The notes: generated by a model from the sequence alone, not told the origin. A stretch of DNA of 10,252 nt from a virus (IMGVR_UViG_2778261533_000005:1-10252), one strand, 5' to 3'; shown: positions 1-10,252, numbered from the stretch's first letter. Made by a program: numbers and translations.

Positions 1-390
1 TTACTCTTTTTTCTCCGTATCTACATCGGGTTCATCAGCAAATAGCTTGCCCTGCATCCGATCCAGTTCTTCTTTTCTTACCCGCTTAACCACGCTGTAG
101 ACCCACTGAAGCGAAACACCAAATTTGCGGGCCAGTTCATGGTGGTTACGTCCGTTAAACCCCCTGAAGATTTCCCGGTCGCGCTGACTGACCTTCCATA
201 CCATGCCCATCGGGAAATAAACGTTTTGCCCGCCCCAGACCTGCATCATGCGGTTCGCGACGGCCTGACCAATCTGGTCGGCAATTGCGGGCTCAATATC
301 AATAATCTCGCGAACGGTCTCAGAGGTATGCTGTGCCAGTTCCACCAGGAGTTCCGGCCCTTTACTTCGAAACTGATTCAGGTCGCTCAT
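1..390 (-). CDS. mor: Mor-family transcriptional activator (Mu middle operon regulator-like), 129 aa, complete
   Basis: ATG at 390..388 and TAA at 3..1. The translation has a GGQNVYFPMG motif and a C-terminal FNGRN..ELARKFGVS...VY..VKR helix-turn-helix-like region, recalled as typical of Mu Mor/C activators. Sits directly downstream of, and overlaps, the gemA-like gene as in Mu. Confidence 0.75.
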   Translation of the reverse strand: MSDLNQFRSKGPELLVELAQHTSETVREIIDIEPAIADQIGQAVANRMMQVWGGQNVYFPMGMVWKVSQRDREIFRGFNGRNHHELARKFGVSLQWVYSVVKRVRKEELDRMQGKLFADEPDVDTEKKE

Positions 391-814
391 GTTTTACTCC
401 CGCAGCTCTGCGTTGCCACTTCTTCAGTTTCTCAATAACACTGCTTGCCTGTTCAGTATTGAGCCAGCGCAGGGCGCTGATGCCCGTTTCCCGCTTGATC
501 CACCGCGCTAATGCATTTTCTGAACGGTCACGAACAATGCCGGCAGCAGCCATTTCAAGCCATAGCGCACGGATTTTCCTGGATTGCGGATGGTTATCCA
601 GCGGTAAACCGGAGCTGGCTTTTCCTGCAGGCCTAACGCGAAAGCCTTTCCTTTTCATGGATTCCAGCACGCAGTTTAGTTGTGTGGTATCCATTCCTTT
701 GGTTGAGGCTTTACCGGTCAGCCCCTGTAACATCTGGCGGTAGGTGTCTTCATCCATACCCAGTTCATTACGGGCAATATGAATGAGCTGGATAAGACGT
801 TGTTTAGTCATCAT
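362..814 (-). CDS. gemA: GemA-like regulatory protein (Mu gp16 / DUF1018 family)
   Basis: ORF track gives 362..853. I prefer the tandem ATG ATG at 814..809 because a GAAGGAG Shine-Dalgarno lies about 6 nt upstream and the start overlaps the stop of the upstream small ORF. N-terminal LIQLIHIARNELGMDEDTYRQML..TGK...M....L..VLE.MKRKGF matches the pattern I recall for Mu GemA. Its 3' end overlaps the mor start. Confidence 0.75.
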   Translation of the reverse strand: MMTKQRLIQLIHIARNELGMDEDTYRQMLQGLTGKASTKGMDTTQLNCVLESMKRKGFRVRPAGKASSGLPLDNHPQSRKIRALWLEMAAAGIVRDRSENALARWIKRETGISALRWLNTEQASSVIEKLKKWQRRAAGVKHERPESVSK

Positions 815-1019
815 CGTTGCTCCTTCTGCCTGCATCACCGATATAATCGACATATAAAGGAAGTGCCACAGGCCAGCACAGGAACATCACTGACCAGCTA
901 ATCCAGTAACCGGCACCACTGTAACGTGAATAAAACCCTGAACGGCGGTGCAGTTCAGCAGTACACCAACCGACAAAACAATACCAGAACAGGGCACATA
1001 CAACAGATTCAGTCGTCAT
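804..1019 (-). CDS. small hypothetical membrane protein (about 71 aa, two hydrophobic segments), acidic C-terminus
   Basis: ATG at 1019..1017 inside the longer ORF-track frame 804..1175. Translation MTTESVVCALFWYCFVGWCTAEL...YWISWSVMFLCWPVALPLYV has two predicted hydrophobic helices. Stop TAA at 806..804 overlaps the gemA start codons (ATGATGACTAA). Start choice is uncertain. Confidence 0.4.
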   Translation of the reverse strand: MTTESVVCALFWYCFVGWCTAELHRRSGFYSRYSGAGYWISWSVMFLCWPVALPLYVDYIGDAGRRSNDDD

Positions 1020-1239
1020 TCTGAATATCCCCCCAACTGATATGAATATTACGGGCAGCAATGACAGGGTCTTTATTCCACCATGCACCTGACATGTATT
1101 TTTCAACCTGTTCGCGTCCGGCAATAACACCAATTGTGATCCCCGGCCTGACGTTCTTAAAAAAGGCGCGGGCAAAAAGGTATCTGGCAGATATTCGGCA
1201 GGCTTTTAATTTCCGGCTGTTACCTGATAACGTAATCAT
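1009..1239 (-). CDS. hypothetical small phage protein (76 aa)
   Basis: ATG at 1239..1237 overlaps the stop of the upstream 119-aa ORF (ATGA), and its TGA at 1011..1009 lies 8 nt inside the next ORF. Operon-style coupling is the only support; no family recognised. Confidence 0.4.
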   Translation of the reverse strand: MITLSGNSRKLKACRISARYLFARAFFKNVRPGITIGVIAGREQVEKYMSGAWWNKDPVIAARNIHISWGDIQNDD

Positions 1240-1595
1240 CTGGCCTCCAGTTTCTGCTGTTCCCGCCCACTGACCGGTCGGTGCAGTCTGACGTTCTGCC
1301 CTTCTCGAAACCCCGCATAGCGCGAGGCGTCGCCATTGCGGCTTCTTCCCGGTTTACGCGCCCTGGTGGTTTGCGTCTGCGGGTATTTATGTTCCAGCCA
1401 CTGCTGCATCAGTTCACGTTCGTCATCGGTCAGGGCGAAGGACTGTATTTCACTGATAACGGCCAGCACCCAGCCTTCAGCAAACTGGTCTCCACGGCTG
1501 GTGCGGGTGGTGGTTTTTATTCTTTTGTTCTGTGCACTGATATACTGCTGACGCGCCTTTTTCAGCTGCCGGAGCTGTATCGGGTGCTGTTCCAT
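1236..1595 (-). CDS. hypothetical phage early-region protein (119 aa), first gene of the minus-strand operon in this window
   Basis: ATG at 1595..1593 and TGA at 1238..1236 overlapping the next start. The translation is basic and helical-looking with no low-complexity runs. No family recognised. Confidence 0.45.
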   Translation of the reverse strand: MEQHPIQLRQLKKARQQYISAQNKRIKTTTRTSRGDQFAEGWVLAVISEIQSFALTDDERELMQQWLEHKYPQTQTTRARKPGRSRNGDASRYAGFREGQNVRLHRPVSGREQQKLEAR

Positions 1596-1724: not shown

Positions 1725-2822
1725 GTGCTGACGCCGGTATTCACTCTGTGGTATCTGCAGAAAAACATCACCTCTGATATCGCGCCTTATGTCACCCGTG
1801 TGGTCTGGAGCGATAACATCAAAAATGAGTCCGATACCATTGAGGTGGAGCTGGACGACACCGATGGCCGCTGGCTGGATAAGTGGTATCCGGGCAAGGG
1901 TGACACGCTGACGCTGAAAATGGGTTATCAGGGCGAGAAACTGCTGTCCTGCGGTACATTCTCAATAGACGAGATCGAAGTGAGTTCGCCCGCGTCCGTT
2001 GTCGCTATCCGTGGGGTGGCCACCTCGGTTAACAGTGCTCTGCGGACTAAATCCAGCCGTGGTTTTGAGAACACCACGCTGGCAGCTGTTGCGGGGCGGA
2101 TTGCCAGAAAGCACCGGCTGAAACTGGTGGGCAGCATTGAGTCCATCAGAATCGACCGGGTGACCCAGTATGCTGAAACCGACGTGGGTTTTCTGCGCCG
2201 GCTGGCCAGCGAGTATGGTTATGCAGTGAAAGTGGTCAGTGACCAGTTGATTTTTTCTCATCTGGCCACACTGCGCAGTCAGGAGCCGGTCAGGCAGTTA
2301 AAACCGCAGGATGTGGCCTGCTTTTCCCTGCGTGACACCATCAACCGGGTCTATAAATCTGCAAAGGTAAAACACCAGAAAAGCAGCAGTAAAAAACTGA
2401 TCGTCTACGAAGCTGATGGTGGTACCCGTGAAAGCGACAAAAAGCTCAAAGGCGGTAAGGTTACCAGCGCTGACTCACTTAAAGTTAACAGCCGCGTCAG
2501 CGACCCGGACAGTGCCCGGATTAAAGCGGATTCAGCACTGGCCAGACATAACGAATACCAGCAGAACGGCTCCCTGACGCTGACGGGAACGCCTCAACTG
2601 ACAGCAGGCAACAAAATTGAACTGGTGGGCTTTGGACAGTTATCCGGTCCATGGCTGATAATCACTGCCCGCCATGCGTTTGAGCGTAACAGCGGCTACA
2701 CCACAGAGCTGGAAGTGGCACGGGGGCCAGTCACAAGAGGGAAAAAACAAAAAACTCAGAAACTCACGGTTTATCACCCGGATGGCAGTACATCGACGGT
2801 GATTAAGGAGAAGAAAAAATGA
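1725..2822 (+). CDS. baseplate hub protein (P2 gpD / Mu gp44-like, 'late control D' family); start uncertain, possibly 5'-truncated
   Basis: 365-aa ORF whose first in-frame start is GTG at 1725. It contains an ELDDTDG motif and the overall length expected of P2 gpD-type hubs. Its TGA at 2820..2822 overlaps the gpV ATG (ATGA). The nearest in-frame upstream stop is at 1701..1703. Confidence 0.7.
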   Translation: MLTPVFTLWYLQKNITSDIAPYVTRVVWSDNIKNESDTIEVELDDTDGRWLDKWYPGKGDTLTLKMGYQGEKLLSCGTFSIDEIEVSSPASVVAIRGVATSVNSALRTKSSRGFENTTLAAVAGRIARKHRLKLVGSIESIRIDRVTQYAETDVGFLRRLASEYGYAVKVVSDQLIFSHLATLRSQEPVRQLKPQDVACFSLRDTINRVYKSAKVKHQKSSSKKLIVYEADGGTRESDKKLKGGKVTSADSLKVNSRVSDPDSARIKADSALARHNEYQQNGSLTLTGTPQLTAGNKIELVGFGQLSGPWLIITARHAFERNSGYTTELEVARGPVTRGKKQKTQKLTVYHPDGSTSTVIKEKKK

Positions 2823-3346
2823 CTGGTGTCACCCGTCAGATCGGTACGGTCAGTGCCGTTGATGCCGACAGGGTTCAGGCCCGCGTTCGTCTGCCTGAAT
2901 GCGATAATCTGCGCACAAACTGGCTTAACGTGCTACAGCGCAATACCCAGGATAACAAGGATTACTGGCTCCCTGACGTGGGGGAGCAGGTTGAGGTGCT
3001 GCTCGATGCCAACGGCGAGGATGGTGTTATTCTGGGCGCGGTGTACTCAGACGTCGATAAACCGCCGTTCAGTGATAAAAACGTCCGGGGTACGAAATAC
3101 GCTGATGGCGCGGAGTTCAGTTATAACCGCGCGACCCATACGCTGACGGTCAGAGGAGGTATTGAGCGTATCGTGGTGGAGGTTGCCGCTGATATCTCTC
3201 TCAAAGGGAAAAACCTCGACCTCACGGGAGTTACCACGATCAACGGCCCCGCGACACTCAATGGTGATCTGGAAATCAACGGAAGCGCCCATGCAACGGG
3301 TAACATATTTGCTGATGGTCAGAACTCTAATCACCATTCCCATTGA
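2819..3346 (+). CDS. baseplate spike / assembly protein V (P2 gpV, Mu gp45-like)
   Basis: ATG at 2819 preceded by AAGGAG at 2805..2810. 175 aa with an N-terminal OB-fold-like region and a C-terminal repetitive beta-rich region (TLTV..., LDLTGVTTINGPATLNGDLEINGSAHATGNI) typical of gpV spikes. Position between hub and gpW fits. Confidence 0.85.
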   Translation: MTGVTRQIGTVSAVDADRVQARVRLPECDNLRTNWLNVLQRNTQDNKDYWLPDVGEQVEVLLDANGEDGVILGAVYSDVDKPPFSDKNVRGTKYADGAEFSYNRATHTLTVRGGIERIVVEVAADISLKGKNLDLTGVTTINGPATLNGDLEINGSAHATGNIFADGQNSNHHSH

Positions 3347-3402
3347 ACCTTCTTAAACGCCTTTAATATCGGCGCTTACTTCCCGGGGGCAATACTGCCT
3401 CC

Positions 3403-3750
3403 ATGAAAACGACCTCAGTATTCTGGCAACCAGCTCTGCAGGCTCCCGGCGAAATCGTCCGGGGGCTGGATGATATCCGGCAGTCCATCCAGATCATCCT
3501 GCGGACTCCCCGCGGCAGCGACCCGCATCGCCCGGAGTTCGGCAGCAATCTGCACCTTTATATCGACTGGCCTGTCGACCGGGCCATTCCGCATGTGGTT
3601 CGCGAATCCGTCGATGCCATCAGGCGCTGGGAACCCCGCTGCCAGCTTATGTCGGTTAAACCCGCCGTCGACGGCGAACATCTTACGCTCCGGGTGAGCT
3701 GGAAAGGCTCAGACGGACAACCCCGTACTCAGGAACTGCTATGGCGCTGA
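3403..3750 (+). CDS. baseplate wedge protein W (P2 gpW / T4 gp25-like)
   Basis: ATG at 3403. 115 aa, the size and position expected for gpW/gp25 family, with the IRQSIQIIL.T..G....P.FGS.L motif characteristic of that fold. Stop TGA 3748..3750 overlaps the gpJ start. Confidence 0.85.
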   Translation: MKTTSVFWQPALQAPGEIVRGLDDIRQSIQIILRTPRGSDPHRPEFGSNLHLYIDWPVDRAIPHVVRESVDAIRRWEPRCQLMSVKPAVDGEHLTLRVSWKGSDGQPRTQELLWR

Positions 3751-4844
3751 CAGAACCCGATTTTATTGAACGCGATGCCGATAAAATCACGGCAGAAATG
3801 ATTGCGAAGTATGAAGCGGATACCGGAAAAACGCTGTACCCGGCACAGGCTGAACGTCTGCTGATTGACCTGTGGGCCTATCGCGAAATGCTGGTCAGGG
3901 TGGCAGTACAGGAGGCGGCGAAGCAGAATCTGGTCGCTTTTTCCCGTGAGCCGATGATTGATTACCTCGGTGAACTGGTCGGTGTATACCGCCTTGCCGC
4001 GCAGCCTGCCACCACCACACTTCAGTTCTCTGTGGATGAGGCACTGGCCATTGATGTGCTGATCCCGGCAGGCACCCGCGTCAGCGCTTCCGACAGTATT
4101 ATTTTTGCCACCGATACAGACGTGGTGCTGAAGGCCGGATTGCTGCTGGTCAATGTCACGGCCACCTGTACCGAGCCGGGTACCGCTGGCAACGGCTGGC
4201 AACCGGCGCAGGTCAGTCAGTTACTCGATGAGATTGATAACATTGACCTGCTGGTGACCAATCTGACGGCCAGCTCTGGCGGTTCAGAGCAGGAAGACGA
4301 TGACCGGCTCCGGGAGCGTATCAGGCTGGCCCCGGAGTCATTCACCAATGCCGGAAGCCGTGGTGCATACCGTTTTCATGCTATGGGGGCGCATCCCGGC
4401 ATTGTCGACGTTGCTGTTCTTTCTCCCGTTCCCGGCACTGTCGAGCTGTATCCGCTGCTCAGCACTGGTCTGCCGGACAGCAGTATCCTCACTCTGGTAG
4501 AGAGTTTCTGTTCTGACGAAAAAGTCAGACCACTCACTGATACCGTGCGGGCTAAAACACCTGTTCAGGTGGATTACACCATTGAAGCCAGGATTACGAT
4601 CTATCGTGATCAGGATGCAAGGTTGGTAAAGGACAACGCTAACAGCGCCATACAGAACTGGGTGGCATCCCGTACCGCCACGCTGGGGCGCGATATTGTT
4701 CCCAGCCAGATTATCAGCGTGTTGTCCGTTTCCGGGGTGTACCAGGTCGAACTGGTGACACCGGCACTGAGGGTGGTGGCAGAAAACGAATGGGCAAACT
4801 GTACGGCGATCACTCTTAACATGACCGGGGTGTCCGATGGCTGA
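3741..4844 (+). CDS. baseplate protein J (P2 gpJ / Mu gp47 / T4 gp6-like)
   Basis: ATG at 3741 with AGGAA upstream. 367 aa, located between gpW and gpI; the sequence character is typical of Baseplate_J family. Stop overlaps the gpI ATG at 4837. Confidence 0.85.
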   Translation: MALTEPDFIERDADKITAEMIAKYEADTGKTLYPAQAERLLIDLWAYREMLVRVAVQEAAKQNLVAFSREPMIDYLGELVGVYRLAAQPATTTLQFSVDEALAIDVLIPAGTRVSASDSIIFATDTDVVLKAGLLLVNVTATCTEPGTAGNGWQPAQVSQLLDEIDNIDLLVTNLTASSGGSEQEDDDRLRERIRLAPESFTNAGSRGAYRFHAMGAHPGIVDVAVLSPVPGTVELYPLLSTGLPDSSILTLVESFCSDEKVRPLTDTVRAKTPVQVDYTIEARITIYRDQDARLVKDNANSAIQNWVASRTATLGRDIVPSQIISVLSVSGVYQVELVTPALRVVAENEWANCTAITLNMTGVSDG

Positions 4845-5415
4845 GGTGCTACAACTCCCGCCACCGCTTGAGGGTGATATCAGTCTCAGAACGCTGGGAA
4901 GACTGGCCGGACGGCTGGATAACATCGACCTGAGCGTACTGATGGTCGGTCTCGTCGATATTGTCGACAGTTCCGCGCTGCCATGGCTTGGCGAGCAGTT
5001 CTCGCTGTTCGGCGATGGCTGGGAACTGGCGGAATCGGACGATGTACGCCGCATGCTTATCAAATCCGCTATCGAGCTACACCGCTATAAAGGAACACCG
5101 TGGTCAATCCGGGAAATTATCCGCCGTTTTGGCTTCGGCGAAGTGGATCTGATTGAAGGTACGGGGCAGATTGGCTATGACGGCAGACACACGTACAACG
5201 GGCTTTTCGTCCATGGTGATGCACAAGCCTGGGCAGTCTATCGCGTCATCCTTCAACAACCCATCACTAACGATCAGGCGGCGCTGTTACGTCAGACGCT
5301 TGCTGCCTTTGCTCCGGCTCGCTGTCATCTGGCAAGTCTGGAATATCAGTCTGTCGCCATTCGATACAACAGTACTACCCGTTATGACGGTAGTTACAAC
5401 CACGGGAGCAGTTAA
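4837..5415 (+). CDS. tail/baseplate protein I (P2 gpI / Mu gp48-like, e14 YmfQ-like)
   Basis: ATG at 4837 overlapping the gpJ stop. 192 aa, immediately upstream of the tail-fibre gene as gpI is in P2 and Mu. Confidence 0.8.
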   Translation: MAEVLQLPPPLEGDISLRTLGRLAGRLDNIDLSVLMVGLVDIVDSSALPWLGEQFSLFGDGWELAESDDVRRMLIKSAIELHRYKGTPWSIREIIRRFGFGEVDLIEGTGQIGYDGRHTYNGLFVHGDAQAWAVYRVILQQPITNDQAALLRQTLAAFAPARCHLASLEYQSVAIRYNSTTRYDGSYNHGSS

Positions 5416-5417
5416 TT

Positions 5418-6371
5418 ATGGCAAATCTACCCGAAACCCCGCAGTGGGAAAGCGGCATCTACCAGATTGAGGTCTCTGACCCCGTTCTGGGCGGACCTGA
5501 CGGAATTTCTAACCGCCAGGCTAAACAACTGGCCAGCCGAACGTCATACCTCAAACAGAAGGTCGAAAAAAGCGGAACAGACCTGGCTGCACATATCGCG
5601 GCAGTTGACCCGCATACCCAGTACGCGACGAAAGCCAGTCCGACATTCACCGGCACACCAACAGCACCTACACCTGCAAATGGTGATAACAGCAAAAAGC
5701 TGGCGACGACGGAGTTTGTGGCCAAAGCACTTGCGGCACTTGCAGGCAGCGCCCCTGAGACACTGGATACGCTTAAAGAGCTGGCTGACGCTCTCGGTAA
5801 TGATCCAAACTTTGCGACTACGGTACTGAACAAGCTGGCGGAAAAGCTGGCTAAAGACCAGAACGGCGCAGATATTCCTGAGCCTGCGCTGTTTGTCAAA
5901 AACCTTGGTTTGGGGGAAGGCTCTGCACTACCTGTTGGTGTGCCTGTTCCATGGCCGTCAGCCACACCGCCAACAGGGTGGCTGAAATGTAACGGTGCAG
6001 CATTTTCTTCTGAAATGTACCCCAATCTGGCAAAGGCTTACCCCACGAATAAATTACCGGATTTACGGGGCGAATTTATCCGTGGCTGGGATGACGGACG
6101 AGGTATTGATGCAGGACGAGAGATACTTTCATTTCAGGAAGGCACTATCGTCTCCGGTTTTGATGATAATGATACTGGGGATATCAGTTCACTTAGCTCA
6201 ACACAATACGGATTTGGTGACACTCTAACCTCTAATCAATGGGGGGCCATAAATGGCAAAAAGTGGATATTTGATGCATCCAGTAAAGGTGCACAAAAAT
6301 ATGACTGGTGGGCTTATGTATCAGCTCGTCCGCGTAATATTGCATTTAATTACATCGTAAGAGCGGCATAG
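5418..6371 (+). CDS. tail fibre protein: constant N-terminal part (about residues 1-163) fused to the currently expressed variable C-terminal cassette 1
   Basis: ATG at 5418 with GGGAG at 5404..5408. The N-terminal region contains the side-tail-fibre motif SPTFTGTPTAPTP...ATTEFV...LDTLKELADALGNDPNF. The C-terminal region from about residue 164 is a tail-collar-type domain (PVGVPVPWP....GWLKCNGAAFS...YP.L...LPDLRGEFIRGWD) ending in ARPRNIAFNYIVRAA. The crossover site lies in-frame at 5893..5918. Confidence 0.9.
   Translation: MANLPETPQWESGIYQIEVSDPVLGGPDGISNRQAKQLASRTSYLKQKVEKSGTDLAAHIAAVDPHTQYATKASPTFTGTPTAPTPANGDNSKKLATTEFVAKALAALAGSAPETLDTLKELADALGNDPNFATTVLNKLAEKLAKDQNGADIPEPALFVKNLGLGEGSALPVGVPVPWPSATPPTGWLKCNGAAFSSEMYPNLAKAYPTNKLPDLRGEFIRGWDDGRGIDAGREILSFQEGTIVSGFDDNDTGDISSLSSTQYGFGDTLTSNQWGAINGKKWIFDASSKGAQKYDWWAYVSARPRNIAFNYIVRAA
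5893..5918 (+). other. 26-bp recombination crossover site 1 (gix/hix/pix-like), at the constant/variable boundary of the expressed fibre gene
   Basis: TTGTCAAAAACC-TT-GGTTTGGGGGAA: two 12-bp half-sites matching 8 of 12 positions as an inverted repeat around a TT core. The left half closely resembles the TT.TC.AAAACC left half I recall for Hin/Gin sites. The 14 bp from the core onward recur at the 5' end of every cassette. Confidence 0.7.
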
Positions 6372-6390
6372 AAACGTTGGTTTGGGGGAA
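6365..6390 (+). other. crossover site 2 (direct orientation), 5' end of cassette 2
   Basis: GGCATAGAAACG-TT-GGTTTGGGGGAA. The right half and TT core are identical to site 1. The left half is supplied by the conserved 3' end of cassette 1 and contains its TAG stop. Confidence 0.65.
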
Positions 6391-6915
6391 GGCTCGGCGC
6401 TGCCCGTTGGTGTCCCCGTTCCGTGGCCCTCAGCCACACTGCCAGCAGGGTGGCTGAAATGTAACGGCGCAGCATTTTCTTCTGAAATGTACCCCAATCT
6501 GGCAAAGGCTTATCCTACAAATAAACTACCGGATCTACGGGGTGAGTTTATCCGTGGCTGGGATGACGGACGTGGCGTGGATGCGGGGCGAGCCTTGCTA
6601 AGTCTTCAGGATGACTCTTTTGAAGCGCACAGGCATGAGTCATTTTTTTATGCGGGTATTTCACGCAATGAAATCCCATTAAAAAATCTTCCAAGTTCAG
6701 ACGAGATGCTGACTTTAAGTTCCACAACTAATGCCTTGTCACCGGACGGTATTGATGCCACCAATTCGTTAATTGGTAATGACGATTACAACTGTCTTAT
6801 CGAAGGGAATAAAAATAACAAACGAACAGCAACGGGTCTAAGTACCAGTATTGTCGGCGCAGCAGAAACCCGCCCCCGTAACATTGCGTTTAATTACATC
6901 GTAAGGGCGGCATAG
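6382..6915 (+). CDS. silent alternative tail-fibre C-terminal cassette 2 (collar-type domain, no own start or RBS)
   Basis: The frame is open from the crossover core (6379) to TAG at 6913..6915. The track's M is the TTG inside the site. The N-terminal 70 aa are near-identical to cassette 1, followed by a unique about 90-aa core and the conserved ETRPRNIAFNYIVRAA end. It would be in frame with the constant region if joined at the core. Confidence 0.75.
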   Translation: MGEGSALPVGVPVPWPSATLPAGWLKCNGAAFSSEMYPNLAKAYPTNKLPDLRGEFIRGWDDGRGVDAGRALLSLQDDSFEAHRHESFFYAGISRNEIPLKNLPSSDEMLTLSSTTNALSPDGIDATNSLIGNDDYNCLIEGNKNNKRTATGLSTSIVGAAETRPRNIAFNYIVRAA

Positions 6916-6934
6916 AAACGTTGGTTTGGGGGAA
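6909..6934 (+). other. crossover site 3 (direct orientation), 5' end of cassette 3
   Basis: GGCATAGAAACG-TT-GGTTTGGGGGAA, identical to site 2. Confidence 0.65.
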
Positions 6935-7393
6935 GGCTCGGCGCTGCCCGTTGGTGTGCCTGTTCCGTGGCCCTCAGCCACACCACCAACGGGCTGGCTG
7001 AAATGTAACGGTGCAGCATTTTCTTCTGAAATGTATCCCAAACTGGCAAAAGCTTACCCCACCAATAAATTACCGGATTTACGGGGTGAATTTATTCGTG
7101 GCTGGGATGATGGGCGGGGAATTGATAATAGACGCAACCTACTGTCTGCACAGTCTGACACTATTCAGAATATAGTTGGCACTTTTGGACGAACTCAGCT
7201 TTTTAAAGATGCTTTAAATTCAGGGCCATTTAGTCAAACTGACTCTATATTATCAGTAGGCTTGCAACCAACTGAGAGTATTGAAGGATATGGCGCCTCT
7301 GTATGGACATTCGACGCCTCTCGCTCAGTTCGCACAGCATCTGAAACACGTCCTCGTAACATTGCGTTTAATTACATCGTAAGGGCGGCATAG
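6926..7393 (+). CDS. silent alternative tail-fibre C-terminal cassette 3
   Basis: Same architecture: conserved collar N-terminus, unique core, ETRPRNIAFNYIVRAA, TAG at 7391..7393. No ATG or Shine-Dalgarno. Confidence 0.75.
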   Translation: MGEGSALPVGVPVPWPSATPPTGWLKCNGAAFSSEMYPKLAKAYPTNKLPDLRGEFIRGWDDGRGIDNRRNLLSAQSDTIQNIVGTFGRTQLFKDALNSGPFSQTDSILSVGLQPTESIEGYGASVWTFDASRSVRTASETRPRNIAFNYIVRAA

Positions 7394-7412
7394 AAACGTT
7401 GGTTTGGGGGAA
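7387..7412 (+). other. crossover site 4 (direct orientation), 5' end of cassette 4
   Basis: GGCATAGAAACG-TT-GGTTTGGGGGAA. Confidence 0.65.
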
Positions 7413-7994
7413 GGCTCTGCACTGCCTGTTGGTGTGCCTGTTCCATGGCCGTCAGCCACACCGCCAGAGGGATGGCTGAAATGCAACGGCGCAGCATTTT
7501 CTTCTGAAATGTACCCCAATCTGGCACAGGCTTACCCCACGAATAAATTACCGGATTTACGCGGTGAATTTATCCGTGGCTGGGATGACGGACGTGGCGT
7601 GGATGCGTGGCGAACATTACTGAGTGCTCAGGATTTTGCGTTTGAAGATCATGCTCTGGGGCTACCTACCAATCAGGGATATGCAGGTATTGAGAAAGGT
7701 AGCACTGAAAATGATGTTTATGCCGCTTTCTCTGATGGCATGCACTATACAGGGAATGTAACCAGTAGCGGTCAATGGGATGATTATTCTCAGTCAAAAA
7801 TTTATATCCGTAGTGATGGTAAGCCTGTCGGAAATAATATTGAGTTAGCTAACTCAAGTGAGGCTTTGCGTTCTTCTTTGCGTACTTATAGAGCCAGTAC
7901 AGGATGGTATAACCCAGGACTAAACAAACCTAAAACAGCTACAGAAACACGTCCGCGCAACGTTGCTTTTAATTACATCGTAAGAGCCGCATGA
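7404..7994 (+). CDS. silent alternative tail-fibre C-terminal cassette 4 (largest, 196 codons)
   Basis: Conserved collar N-terminus, unique about 115-aa core, ETRPRNVAFNYIVRAA, TGA at 7992..7994. Confidence 0.75.
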   Translation: MGEGSALPVGVPVPWPSATPPEGWLKCNGAAFSSEMYPNLAQAYPTNKLPDLRGEFIRGWDDGRGVDAWRTLLSAQDFAFEDHALGLPTNQGYAGIEKGSTENDVYAAFSDGMHYTGNVTSSGQWDDYSQSKIYIRSDGKPVGNNIELANSSEALRSSLRTYRASTGWYNPGLNKPKTATETRPRNVAFNYIVRAA

Positions 7995-8013
7995 AAACGT
8001 TGGTTTGGGGGAA
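7988..8013 (+). other. crossover site 5 (direct orientation), 5' end of cassette 5
   Basis: CGCATGAAAACG-TT-GGTTTGGGGGAA. The left half is a variant because cassette 4 ends with TGA rather than TAG. Confidence 0.65.
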
Positions 8014-8481
8014 GGCTCTGCACTGCCCGTTGGTGTGCCTGTTCCGTGGCCCTCAGCCACACCGCCAACAGGGTGGCTGAAATGTAACGGTGCAGCATTT
8101 TCTTCTGAAATGTACCCCAAACTGGCAAAGGCTTATCCTACAAATAAACTACCGGATCTACGGGGTGAGTTTATCCGTGGCTGGGATGACGGGCGAGGGA
8201 TTGATGCAGGACGTGCTTTATTAAGCTTTCAAACTGGGATGCTGGAAAAACACCGCCATATTGTTGTAGCTAACGATGGGTATGACACAAAGGATGAATG
8301 GGAGTTGGCCACAATTTTCAAAAAAACATATACACAAGGACGGGGACTTGATGCCACAAGTACAGGCGGGAGTCTGATCCCATCACCGACACTTCATTCA
8401 CGAGGGAGTATTGGTAACACTGGTGGTAGTGAAACTCGCCCCCGCAATATCGCATTTAACTATATCGTGAGGGCGGCTTAA
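8005..8481 (+). CDS. silent alternative tail-fibre C-terminal cassette 5
   Basis: Conserved collar N-terminus, unique core, ETRPRNIAFNYIVRAA, TAA at 8479..8481. No crossover site follows it; the tfa gene converges 6 bp downstream. Confidence 0.75.
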   Translation: MGEGSALPVGVPVPWPSATPPTGWLKCNGAAFSSEMYPKLAKAYPTNKLPDLRGEFIRGWDDGRGIDAGRALLSFQTGMLEKHRHIVVANDGYDTKDEWELATIFKKTYTQGRGLDATSTGGSLIPSPTLHSRGSIGNTGGSETRPRNIAFNYIVRAA

Positions 8482-8487
8482 TTATAC

Positions 8488-9105
8488 TCAACTGGCTGCT
8501 GCCAGAGGCATTTCCGGCCAGTTGATATCCGGTGCAGTGCTGATGTCAGTCGCATTAAGCGTATCTATGAAATCAAGCACGGCGTTTAGTTTTTCCGTCT
8601 CCTGGGGCGTCAATCGGCGTCCGGCTCGTAGTTTGAGATTAATAAGCTCAACAGATGCCATTGCCTGTTCCTCAAGTTGCTGACGATGCGCTCCGGCAGC
8701 TTCCAGTTCTGCTGCGTGCTGTCGTCTCGTATCTGTCACCCAAATCTCACCATCCCAGACATCATAGATAGTAGCTGGCTGTTTCACCGTCGTATCAGGA
8801 GGGTAATCTCCCGGTTGTGTGATTTGCACAGCGTTACCATTCTCTGTGCTGTAAACCGTTTCGCCTCTGTGGTCTGGAACATATTTCCAGATGTTCTGGT
8901 CGGTATCACGACAGACAGCGAAGCCGGGGCGTTTTTCTGGTGGCGCGTCAATGCATGAGTGAGCCGGAATTCCAACACCATAAGCGAGATACTCAACAGT
9001 GGCAGAGAGATATTCACGGTTTTCAGCATCGTAGTTATAAACGGTAATATCGCCTGCAGTTATAGCGATACCATTCTGATCAAGTACTGCAGCAGCATTA
9101 TTCAT
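8488..9105 (-). CDS. tail fibre assembly protein (Tfa / Mu U-like chaperone)
   Basis: ATG at 9105..9103 overlaps the TAA of the inverted cassette (TAATG). 205 aa. The C-terminus DTLNATDISTAPDINWPEMP resembles the D.TSTAQDIEWPALP end I recall for E. coli TfaE-type chaperones. Confidence 0.85.
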   Translation of the reverse strand: MNNAAAVLDQNGIAITAGDITVYNYDAENREYLSATVEYLAYGVGIPAHSCIDAPPEKRPGFAVCRDTDQNIWKYVPDHRGETVYSTENGNAVQITQPGDYPPDTTVKQPATIYDVWDGEIWVTDTRRQHAAELEAAGAHRQQLEEQAMASVELINLKLRAGRRLTPQETEKLNAVLDFIDTLNATDISTAPDINWPEMPLAAAS

Positions 9106-9608
9106 TAAGTAGCCCTTACAATATAGTTAAACGCAATATTACGGGGGCGGTTTTCCGTTCCTGTATTCCCTCCGTTGGCACCTAATCTATAAACACCACG
9201 AGTGCCAATAGCACGTAGTGAAGATGGAACTTTTACACCTGACTCATCTGTTTTAACAATCCCGCCATCACCGTATGTAGCCAGTATACCAGGGTTTGTT
9301 CCTGCACGGGTGTTGTTTGCGGCAAGCCCTTCACCAGTCCATAACTCCATATAATGAATATGATCTATAACCGAATGTGATTGTGCATTAAGCAAGGAAC
9401 GCCCTGAATCAATTCCCCGCCCATCATCCCAGCCACGAATAAACTCACCCCGTAAATCCGGTAATTTATTGGTGGGGTAAGCCTTTGCCAGTTTGGGGTA
9501 CATTTCAGAAGAAAATGCTGCGCCGTTACATTTCAGCCACCCTGTTGGCGGTGTGGCTGAGGGCCACGGAACAGGCACACCAACGGGTAGTGCAGAGCCT
9601 TCCCCCAA
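9105..9608 (-). CDS. silent alternative tail-fibre C-terminal cassette M in inverted orientation, followed by tfa
   Basis: Minus-strand frame open from crossover site M to TAA at 9107..9105. N-terminus near-identical to the other cassettes (GEGSALPVGVPVPWPSATPPTGWLKCNGAAFSSEMYPKLAKAYPTNKLPDLRGEFIRGWDDGRGID), unique core, ends ENRPRNIAFNYIVRAT. No own start codon. Confidence 0.8.
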   Translation of the reverse strand: MGEGSALPVGVPVPWPSATPPTGWLKCNGAAFSSEMYPKLAKAYPTNKLPDLRGEFIRGWDDGRGIDSGRSLLNAQSHSVIDHIHYMELWTGEGLAANNTRAGTNPGILATYGDGGIVKTDESGVKVPSSLRAIGTRGVYRLGANGGNTGTENRPRNIAFNYIVRAT

Positions 9609-9625
9609 ACCAACGTTTTCGTCTT
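9600..9625 (-). other. crossover site M (inverted relative to sites 1-5)
   Basis: Plus strand reads TTCCCCCAAACC-AA-CGTTTTCGTCTT, the reverse complement of AAGACGAAAACG-TT-GGTTTGGGGGAA. It is the only site with its asymmetric core inverted, so it is the only direct inversion partner for site 1 in this configuration. Confidence 0.7.
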
Positions 9626-9679
9626 AACTCCCACCTATACCAGCTATGTATTTTTAACAAAACAAAGAGGATATTTTTC

Positions 9680-10252
9680 ATGCAAATTGGCTACATTCGT
9701 GTGTCAACAAATGACCAGAATACAGATTTACAACGAAACGCACTGAACTGCGCAGGATGTGAACTGATTTTTGAGGATAAAATCAGCGGAACAAAGTCAG
9801 CCCGACCGGGATTGAAAAAGCTGCTCAGAACGTTATCAGAAGGAGATACGCTCGTTGTCTGGAAGCTGGACAGGCTGGGCAGAAGCATGAAACACCTCAT
9901 CACTCTTATTGAGGAACTGCGGGAAAAAGGGGTTAACTTCCGTAGTCTTACAGACAGCATTGATACGTCAACACCCATGGGACGTTTCTTTTTTCACGTC
10001 ATGGGGGCTTTAGCGGAAATGGAGCGTGAATTAATAGTTGAACGAACACTGGCCGGACTTGAAGCAGCACGTGCACAGGGGCGTATTGGTGGACGTCGTC
10101 CGAAACTGACAAAAGAGCAACATGAACAAATAGCAAGGCTGATCAAAAATGGCTATAGCAGGAAACAGTTGGCAATTATTTACGATATCGGTATATCGAC
10201 GATTTATCGTTATCACCCTGTAGAGGAACTTCAAACTCAAGCTGATTTGTAA
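9680..10252 (+). CDS. site-specific DNA invertase, serine recombinase of the Gin/Pin/Cin/Hin family
   Basis: ATG at 9680 with AAGAGGA at 9664..9670. N-terminal IGYIRVSTNDQNTDLQRNAL holds the catalytic-serine motif. Long identical stretches to the Gin/Pin sequences as I recall them (GDTLVVWKLDRLGRSMKHLI, SLTDSIDTS.PMGRFFFHVMGALAEMERELI.ERT.AGL.AAR), plus a C-terminal helix-turn-helix. TAA at 10250..10252. The ORF-track start at 9485 is an upstream in-frame extension, rejected. Confidence 0.95.
   Translation: MQIGYIRVSTNDQNTDLQRNALNCAGCELIFEDKISGTKSARPGLKKLLRTLSEGDTLVVWKLDRLGRSMKHLITLIEELREKGVNFRSLTDSIDTSTPMGRFFFHVMGALAEMERELIVERTLAGLEAARAQGRIGGRRPKLTKEQHEQIARLIKNGYSRKQLAIIYDIGISTIYRYHPVEELQTQADL

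Follow-up and report, generated by a model that had tools for sequence, protein, structure and literature searches.

The window analysed here is a 10,252-nt stretch of viral DNA (IMGVR_UViG_2778261533_000005:1-10252). From position 5418 to its end it carries a tail-fibre gene, an array of alternative 3' ends for that gene and, adjoining the array, an intact gene for a DNA invertase. A single constant N-terminal part is followed by five cassettes in tandem (A to E) and one in inverted orientation (F); cassette A is fused to the constant part and the other five are silent (Table 1). The region is very probably a Min-type system of multiple inversion that exchanges the receptor-binding C-terminus of a Mu-S-like tail fibre. 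This reading is carried by the anatomy of the array, its reading frames, the family of the invertase, natural isomers with breakpoints at the crossover sites, and the existence of all six fusion proteins.

Table 1. Features of the window, with coordinates counted from its first letter (ORF, open reading frame)
Feature	Coordinates	Strand	Description
Fibre ORF	5418-6371	+	317 aa
Constant N-terminal fibre part	5418..5906	+	163 codons, ending ...DIPEPALFVKNL (...VKNL); from ORF and translation
Site 0	5893..5918	+	TTGTCAAAAACC TT GGTTTGGGGGAA
Cassette A	5907..6371	+	fused to constant part (317-aa fibre); Pfam Collar 4.1e-14; 154 codons
Site 1	6365..6390	+	GGCATAGAAACG TT GGTTTGGGGGAA
Silent cassette B	6379..6915	+	Pfam Collar; 178 aa read from site
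Site 2	6909..6934	+	19-mer match
Silent cassette C	6923..7393	+	Pfam Collar; 156 aa
Site 3	7387..7412	+	19-mer match
Silent cassette D	7401..7994	+	Pfam Collar; 197 aa
Site 4	7988..8013	+	CGCATGAAAACG TT GGTTTGGGGGAA
Silent cassette E	8002..8481	+	one end of double-headed segment E-tfa-F; Pfam Collar; 159 aa
Tail-fibre assembly (chaperone) gene	8488..9105	-	Pfam Caudo_TAP 8.7e-26
Silent cassette F, inverted	9105..9611	-	Pfam Collar; 168 aa
Site 5, sole inverted site	9600..9625	-	AAGACGAAAACG TT GGTTTGGGGGAA on - strand
Din-family serine DNA invertase	9680..10252	+	190 aa; intact ORF adjoining array
Early-region remnant	1..1573	-	Mor (1-390), Pfam 1e-42; GemA (362-853), Pfam 1.3e-40; small ORFs
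gpD-like hub, 5'-truncated	1725-2822	+	Pfam/NCBIfam
Baseplate V	2819-3346	+	Pfam/NCBIfam
Baseplate W/gp25	3403-3750	+	Pfam/NCBIfam
Baseplate J	3741-4844	+	Pfam/NCBIfam
Baseplate I	4837-5415	+	Pfam/NCBIfam; baseplate block 1725..5415 lies 5' of fibre

All six cassettes match the Pfam Collar domain (PF07484), with E values of about 1e-14, and all are built to one plan. The right half of a crossover site opens a conserved head of ~220 nt, which encodes 70 aa of collar; a variable insert and a conserved tail of ~45 nt (...RPRNIAFNYIVRAA) follow, and then the left half of the next site. Segments A to D run from a head to a tail, and the segment formed by E, the assembly gene and F has a head at both ends. 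A repeat search returned direct units of 299 nt and inverted arms of 220-259 nt that are 84-93% complementary. The crossover core TT supplies the final two bases of the codon for Leu163 of the constant part, and the frame beyond the site, GGT TTG GGG GAA GGC, is common to the constant part and every cassette. Because all cassettes use the frame of the constant part relative to the site, joining at the core preserves the reading frame.

The best solved structural relatives of the cassettes are a short tail fibre (9CUY chain c, E 5e-17) and the T4 gp37 tip (2XGF), with a weak match to the T4 gp12 short tail fibre (E 0.14). In the gp12 structure both chain ends build the collar and the receptor-binding head is an insertion; a gp12-like collar of this kind, made from both ends around an inserted head, would explain the conserved-variable-conserved layout. 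Cassette F alone among the six is coupled to, and followed by, the assembly gene, whose ATG overlaps the cassette F stop codon (TAATG). With any of A to E in the expressed position, the assembly gene lies antisense or far off, which suggests that the cassettes depend unequally on the chaperone.

Each cassette starts with a site of the pattern AAAC[C/G]-TT-GGTTTGGGGGAA. The corresponding 19-mer AAACSTTGGTTTGGGGGAA (AAAC[C/G]TTGGTTTGGGGGAA) occurs six times, at 5900, 6372, 6916, 7394 and 7995 on the + strand and at 9618-9600 on the - strand, with none expected in 200 shuffles. Five sites are thus direct and one is inverted, and in all six the right half-site and the TT core are identical. For comparison, Mu gix reads TTATCCAAAACC TC GGTTTACAGGAA and P1 cix ...ACC TT GGTTTAAGAGAA. 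Site 0 shares with gix 10 of the 12 left-half positions and 9 of the 12 in the right half, and the other right halves likewise agree at 9 of 12. The published consensus permits AAACGTT/GGTTT (Table 3 of PMC4134206). Judged by their sequence, the window sites appear broadly to fit both the gix/cix pattern and that consensus.

The invertase contains Resolvase (PF00239, 1.7e-51) and HTH_7 (PF02796, 1.3e-13) domains and aligns end to end with the Gin structure 4M6F (E 4.5e-91), with the catalytic motifs RVSTNDQ and WKLDRLGRS kept. Its identity is 71.6% with Gin and 73.7% with Cin, which are themselves 74.7% identical; the founding Din members are ~60-75% identical to one another. By these comparisons the protein belongs to the Din family (Gin/Cin/Pin/Hin/Min) of serine recombinases, and an NCBIfam search returned no specific family for the invertase, the fibre or the assembly protein. 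The same protein occurs exactly on at least 1000 public contigs. It is 100% identical to the invertase of a prophage in E. coli M-17, and related prophages with the identical invertase occur as different isomers; the invertase of the P1-like plasmid pYZMc17-1_100k is 95.8% identical to it. Homology to Gin and Cin would predict that it is catalytically active, and probably also that it depends on Fis and an enhancer. The stretch 9698-9769 aligns with the annotated P1 cin enhancer (cin nt 19-90), with 58 of 72 positions identical against ~70% in the rest of the gene.

Much of this anatomy had been proposed in an initial annotation of the window. Its account of one constant part and six C-terminal collar domains, with one fused, four in tandem downstream and one inverted, is confirmed in its coordinates, as are the common frame at the core, the neighbouring Gin/Pin-family invertase and, by the profile search that it had proposed, the tail-collar identity of every cassette. 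Its 26-bp gix/hix-like sites do share an identical right half and TT core; their left halves differ from site to site. The repeated unit is not 26 bp, as it had supposed, and consists of the ~220-nt head and the ~45-nt tail. It had also stated that the silent cassettes have neither a start codon nor a ribosome-binding site. No Shine-Dalgarno sequence was found before the site TTG, in agreement with the second part; that TTG itself (at 6382, 6926, 7404, 8005 and 9608) is a possible start codon. In related RefSeq loci, PGAP calls the silent cassettes separate 'phage tail protein' coding sequences (CDSs) from the site TTG, and in some genomes it tags cassettes as pseudogenes 'missing N-terminus'.

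The evidence for shuffling comes from comparison between genomes. Matches to some part of the region were found in 1958 of 5426 complete E. coli genomes and also in 237 plasmids. We retrieved eleven chromosomal loci, the window included, and typed their cassettes by the variable part (Table 2). Chance repeats or a mis-assembled duplication are ruled out as the source of the array, since independent complete genomes hold the same cassettes.

Table 2. Cassette order in eleven chromosomal loci ('>' fibre orientation, '<' reversed)
Locus	Cassettes after the constant part
Window	A> B> C> D> E> F<
12089	C> E> F< D< A< B<
8178	A> G> E> F<
FEA3	A> G> F> E<
CFIAFB20190167	E> F< A< G<
JNEC-KY180	A> H> C> E> F<
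M-17	H> A> C> F> E<
2014C-3075	E> F<
A33	G> A> E> F< C< J< I<
JB2	A> H> F> E< B< K<
M114	A> D> B> F> E<

Three cassette sets occur in more than one arrangement: {A,G,E,F} in three (8178, FEA3 and CFIAFB20190167), {A,H,C,E,F} in two (JNEC-KY180 and M-17) and {A-F} in two (the window and 12089). All eleven loci share one order, namely the constant part, forward cassettes, E-tfa-F either way round, reversed cassettes and the invertase, and this is the sole order permitted by inversion at head-type sites. 8178 and FEA3 hold the same prophage, inserted beside yehR, and flanking single-nucleotide polymorphisms narrow the exchange between them to ~29 nt that include the site. Three isolates of 8178 were also considered as isomers of one another and rejected: all have the same arrangement, and the difference in the BLAST table arose from the joining of BLAST pieces.

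The comparison of the window with 12089 points to the same place. Heads of different cassettes differ by 18-35 mismatches per 210 nt; between the two loci there are 0 mismatches per 210 nt in the head of A, B, C or D and 2 in that of F, despite changed left neighbours. Because the 210-nt heads of A to D are identical in both, the exchange took place at the site. Upstream of each site, the flank is formed by the tail of whichever cassette lies before it on the strand concerned, and these tail flanks move with the preceding cassette, which fits exchange at the core.

Each silent cassette was also fused in silico to the constant part (5418-5906), and all five products were found as exact full-length public proteins: constant-B on 24 contigs, constant-C on 17, constant-D on 12, constant-E on 19 and constant-F on 15. 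The exact 317-aa constant-A protein is on 38 public contigs. Among the retrieved loci, C stands behind the constant part in E. coli 12089, E in 2014C-3075 and CFIAFB20190167, and D in a second copy of the prophage remnant described below. Judged by comparison of genomes, the isomer sets, the breakpoints at sites and the six fusion proteins demonstrate inversion between the sites.

The pair E and F around a single assembly gene is present in 11 of 11 chromosomal loci, and the one-headed cassettes (A-D, G-K) number 0 to 5. A two-cassette core (E/F), later extended by modular cassettes, is suggested. Two draft contigs end at the array: L019 (GCA_958313175.1) stops within it, and L020 (Logan, ERR3531475) stops at site 0. 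Such breaks fit repeated heads or mixed orientations, so cassette order in drafts of this family is unreliable.

By analogy with Gin and Cin, the 190-aa invertase would bind the six crossover sites, cut at their common TT core and flip the stretch between any pair of sites that face opposite ways. From the state seen in the window, the single inverted site could pair only with each of the five direct sites. A single inversion between site 0 and site 5 would bring F, together with the assembly gene translationally coupled to it, into place behind the constant part; expression of B, C, D or E would need two inversions. A breadth-first search over inversions of opposed sites reached 240 isomers and six different fibres, with any cassette expressible within two inversions and the 12089 arrangement four inversions from that of the window. 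The six tips probably differ in receptor specificity. The many DNA isomers foreseen by the initial annotation agree with this model. Of the three findings that it held would refute it, two are contradicted, as judged by comparison between genomes only: the frames do join at the core, and the junctions do vary.

The array sits in a deleted prophage. An intact relative in E. coli M-17 spans ~38 kb, with Mor, GemA, Gam, a B-like ATPase and the transposase running leftward and lysis, head and tail genes rightward, a layout that is BcepMu-like. Related prophages lie at varied chromosomal places, interrupting otsA, wzz(fepE), a SWIM-domain gene and others, as expected of a transposable Mu-like phage, and the invertase gene is ~70 bp from their right end. 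Window 32-1573 matches the Mor/GemA region of M-17 at 97% (BLAST). Relative to M-17, ~27 kb is then lost, with the transposase, B-like ATPase, Gam, lysis, head, sheath, tube and tape measure genes; the junction lies at 1567-1573, where the two matches overlap by 7 nt. A 146-nt tail-gene fragment (1567-1712) follows, a further 556 bp is lost (junction 1708-1712) that comprised tail protein X and the first 40 nt of the gpD-like gene, and from 1708 the window is colinear with M-17 at 99.6%. The initial annotation had placed the array in a Mu-like baseplate module. The baseplate genes are indeed upstream; the module belongs to a heavily deleted BcepMu-like prophage, and the loss of ~27 kb and 556 bp, which that annotation missed, means that the element alone cannot make particles. 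The switch therefore cannot alter the host range of phage made by this element alone.

A 119-aa ORF (1236-1595, - strand) spans the 27-kb deletion junction and serves as a marker of the lineage. The window is 100% identical to NMHY01000015.1 (GCA_002512315.1), the one full-length remnant copy retrieved (L018). There the remnant splits an AlkZ-like gene (L018 810-1268 and 11827-12540), which we take to be ycaQ, with lpxK on one side and, on the other, genes that we take to be ycaR, kdsB and mukFEB. The same junction ORF at the same locus is found in L019, where the array begins with constant-D and then B (constant-A and then B in the window). In the prophage variant of 8178, FEA3 and CFIAFB20190167, an extra 876-nt gene, absent from the window and M-17, lies between baseplate V and W/gp25 (L001 39-914, L007 1039-1914, L016 1039-1914). 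It is annotated as hypothetical or as a PD-(D/E)XK nuclease domain protein and may be a moron or defence gene.

Several observations weigh against an array that is switched at its sites by its own invertase. The five internal left half-sites (GGCATAGAAACG, CGCATGAAAACG and AAGACGAAAACG among them) agree with the left half of gix/cix at 4-6 of 12 positions, in the inner AAAC(G) only, and we assume that an invertase dimer binds there. The stretch that aligns with the cin enhancer also encodes the conserved catalytic N-terminus, so the match of 58 in 72 is no proof of an enhancer. The prophage is defective, and a scan 5' of the truncated baseplate operon found no promoter-like site; together these make expression of the fibre gene in this strain doubtful. 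Current flipping in this strain is presumed from evidence that is between-genome only. The inverted arms, at their length and complementarity, could also support RecA-dependent inversion. Finally, the E cassettes of the window and 12089 share one type of variable part, yet their heads are mismatched at 22 of 210 positions, which implies that processes besides clean site exchange also shape the array. Cassette E of 12089 (locus 4968-5190) also has a variant site, GGTTTAGGGGAA. There are hints of occasional gene conversion or head exchange at this cassette.

The last points raise the question whether RecA-dependent homologous recombination between the ~220-nt inverted heads makes the isomers, with the invertase uninvolved; the E head of 12089 does suggest some gene conversion or homologous exchange. 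Homologous crossovers would, however, be expected to spread across the 220-nt heads, whereas all comparisons show the head moving intact with the cassette body, starting at the first polymorphic base (8 nt past the site), and the upstream flank staying behind, and the heads of A to D reach their new contexts unaltered. In addition, a near-identical site is a proven crossover site in EC958 Phi2 (PMC4134206), and a gin deletion served as the control for isomer formation in a related three-cassette system (PMC13418256). We consider this explanation very improbable. The downstream cassettes might instead be independent genes that encode free, TTG-started collar proteins of ~150 aa, as the uninterrupted ORF from the TTG in each cassette and the PGAP calls would have it. 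Yet the TTG has no Shine-Dalgarno sequence and belongs to the invariant recombination site, a lone cassette would be without the N-terminal part that attaches the fibre to the baseplate, and other genomes supply an in-frame fusion with the constant part for every cassette; in the EC958 genome paper, auto-annotation of alternate 3' fragments is called misleading (PMC4134206). This possibility seems to us scarcely credible. A frozen relic deserves more attention, although we think it unlikely: the array would have shuffled formerly, and the invertase would now be unexpressed or ineffective in the remnant, with the A-first order fixed. Every regulatory, head and tail-tube gene went with the deletion. 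A scan of 8400-9760, which takes in the ~70 nt 5' of the invertase gene, detected no promoter-like site, and neither around that gene nor at the deletion junction did promoter and terminator scans rise above the shuffled background; moreover, the sole full-length remnant copy is identical to the window. Against this, the invertase ORF and the six sites are intact, and the protein is identical to that of intact prophages. The second remnant copy, with constant-D and then B at the same locus, implies at least one rearrangement younger than the deletion. Flipping also persists in defective prophages, e14 in K-12 among them (PMC4272514), and an invertase can act in trans from another prophage (PMC4134206).

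The Min-type reading can be set against known systems. Fibre switching by Din invertases is classical in Mu, P1 and e14. Our comparison with the Min system of p15B relies on secondary citations and on a present-day P1-like plasmid, pYZMc17-1_100k. As cited in PMC2481393, PMC6109161 and PMC6906374, p15B Min (Sandmeier, Iida and Arber 1990/1992) is a six-site system, and it is reported to form 240 isomers (PMC2481393). As far as those citations describe it, the likeness to Min that the initial annotation had drawn holds: a serine Din-family invertase, six sites, one constant 5' part, several 3' parts (six cassettes) and 240 isomers. The setting differs, being a P1-like plasmid prophage there and a chromosomal BcepMu-like prophage remnant, in the presumed ycaQ, here. 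The constant part of p15B reportedly has 739 codons; that of the window has 163 aa with a Mu-Sc-like end. The E. coli plasmid pYZMc17-1_100k (~100 kb, non-mobilizable), in which the neighbouring genes are P1-like, has eight sites with a TT core and GGTTT[G/A]GGGGAA, together with at least 7 collar cassettes (L008 2610-7092). Cassette type I is present both in this plasmid and in the chromosomal A33 array, and cassettes appear to be shared between Mu-like prophages and P1-like plasmids.

The Mu G/Gin system is similar in its invertase (72% identical), in the position of the invertase gene at the right end of a transposable prophage, straight after the invertible region, and in a site at the end of a constant part of ~165 codons; the last 21 aa of the window constant part are 67% identical to the end of Mu Sc before gixL. 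The corresponding half-sites are GGTTTACAGGAA in Mu and GGTTTGGGGGAA in the window. In contrast, the Mu segment comprises two sites and a pair of cassettes that each have a separate assembly gene (U, U'), the Mu core is TC rather than TT, and Mu Sv is not collar-type; no similarity was detected between the window assembly protein and Mu U. In EC958 Phi2, the crossover site GAGAGATAAACGTT GGTTTGGGGGAA (also written GATAAACGTT GGTTTGGGGGAA), near-identical to that of the window, lies in a 227-bp imperfect inverted repeat with collar-domain 3' parts, and flipping was seen in PacBio reads (PMC4134206). A P2-like prophage of EPEC E2348/69 has a 'shufflon' of three inverted repeats with four variants and three C-termini, validated by polymerase chain reaction (PMC4272514). 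These two loci have two and three cassettes in P2-like prophages, whereas the window has six in a Mu-like element. A three-cassette array in another phage, FRphi of Enterobacter, which we liken to the window by description, has a Gin-type invertase and three C-terminal fibre parts; long reads served to quantify its isoforms, alongside a gin deletion and locked variants, and one isoform was tied to the receptor FhuA (PMC13418256). The R64 shufflon (Rci/sfx, PilV) also swaps the C-termini of an adhesin-like protein through clustered, overlapping inversions, but Rci is a tyrosine recombinase acting at unrelated sfx sites. Because the recombinase here is a serine invertase, membership of the R64 type was rejected, and 'shufflon' applies to the window only in a loose sense. 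Fibre rearrangements have been described in a preprint on a Bcepmuvirus-like prophage of ST131 (10.1101/2022.05.07.487787); we found no paper in the literature on this six-cassette array in a BcepMu-like prophage.

The mechanism is not new: both it and its multi-cassette form are already established (PMC4134206, PMC4272514 and PMC13418256, with p15B Min via PMC2481393). Nor is the system unusual, since arrays of 2 to 7 cassettes occur in E. coli chromosomes and eight-site arrays on P1-like plasmids. We also considered whether the array and invertase have been kept functional in the remnant to serve co-resident elements. The remnant invertase would then flip, in trans, the homologous fibre arrays of co-resident prophages or P1-like plasmids, and the remnant would act as a reservoir that feeds collar-cassette exchange between Mu-like prophages and P1-like phage-plasmids. 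The idea draws on the cassette types, site type and 96% identical invertase that are common to both kinds of element, and on the rearrangement that followed the 27-kb deletion; we regard it as speculative and rather unlikely.

The value of the finding is mainly practical. For annotation, what is called a 'phage tail protein' CDS downstream of the fibre gene in this family is not a gene but a silent alternative 3' end. For assembly, a given cassette order is one snapshot of up to 240 states, and short-read assemblies break at the array. For work on host range, at least 11 interchangeable collar-type tips for receptor binding, all fitting one scaffold, are available in this family as a natural library.

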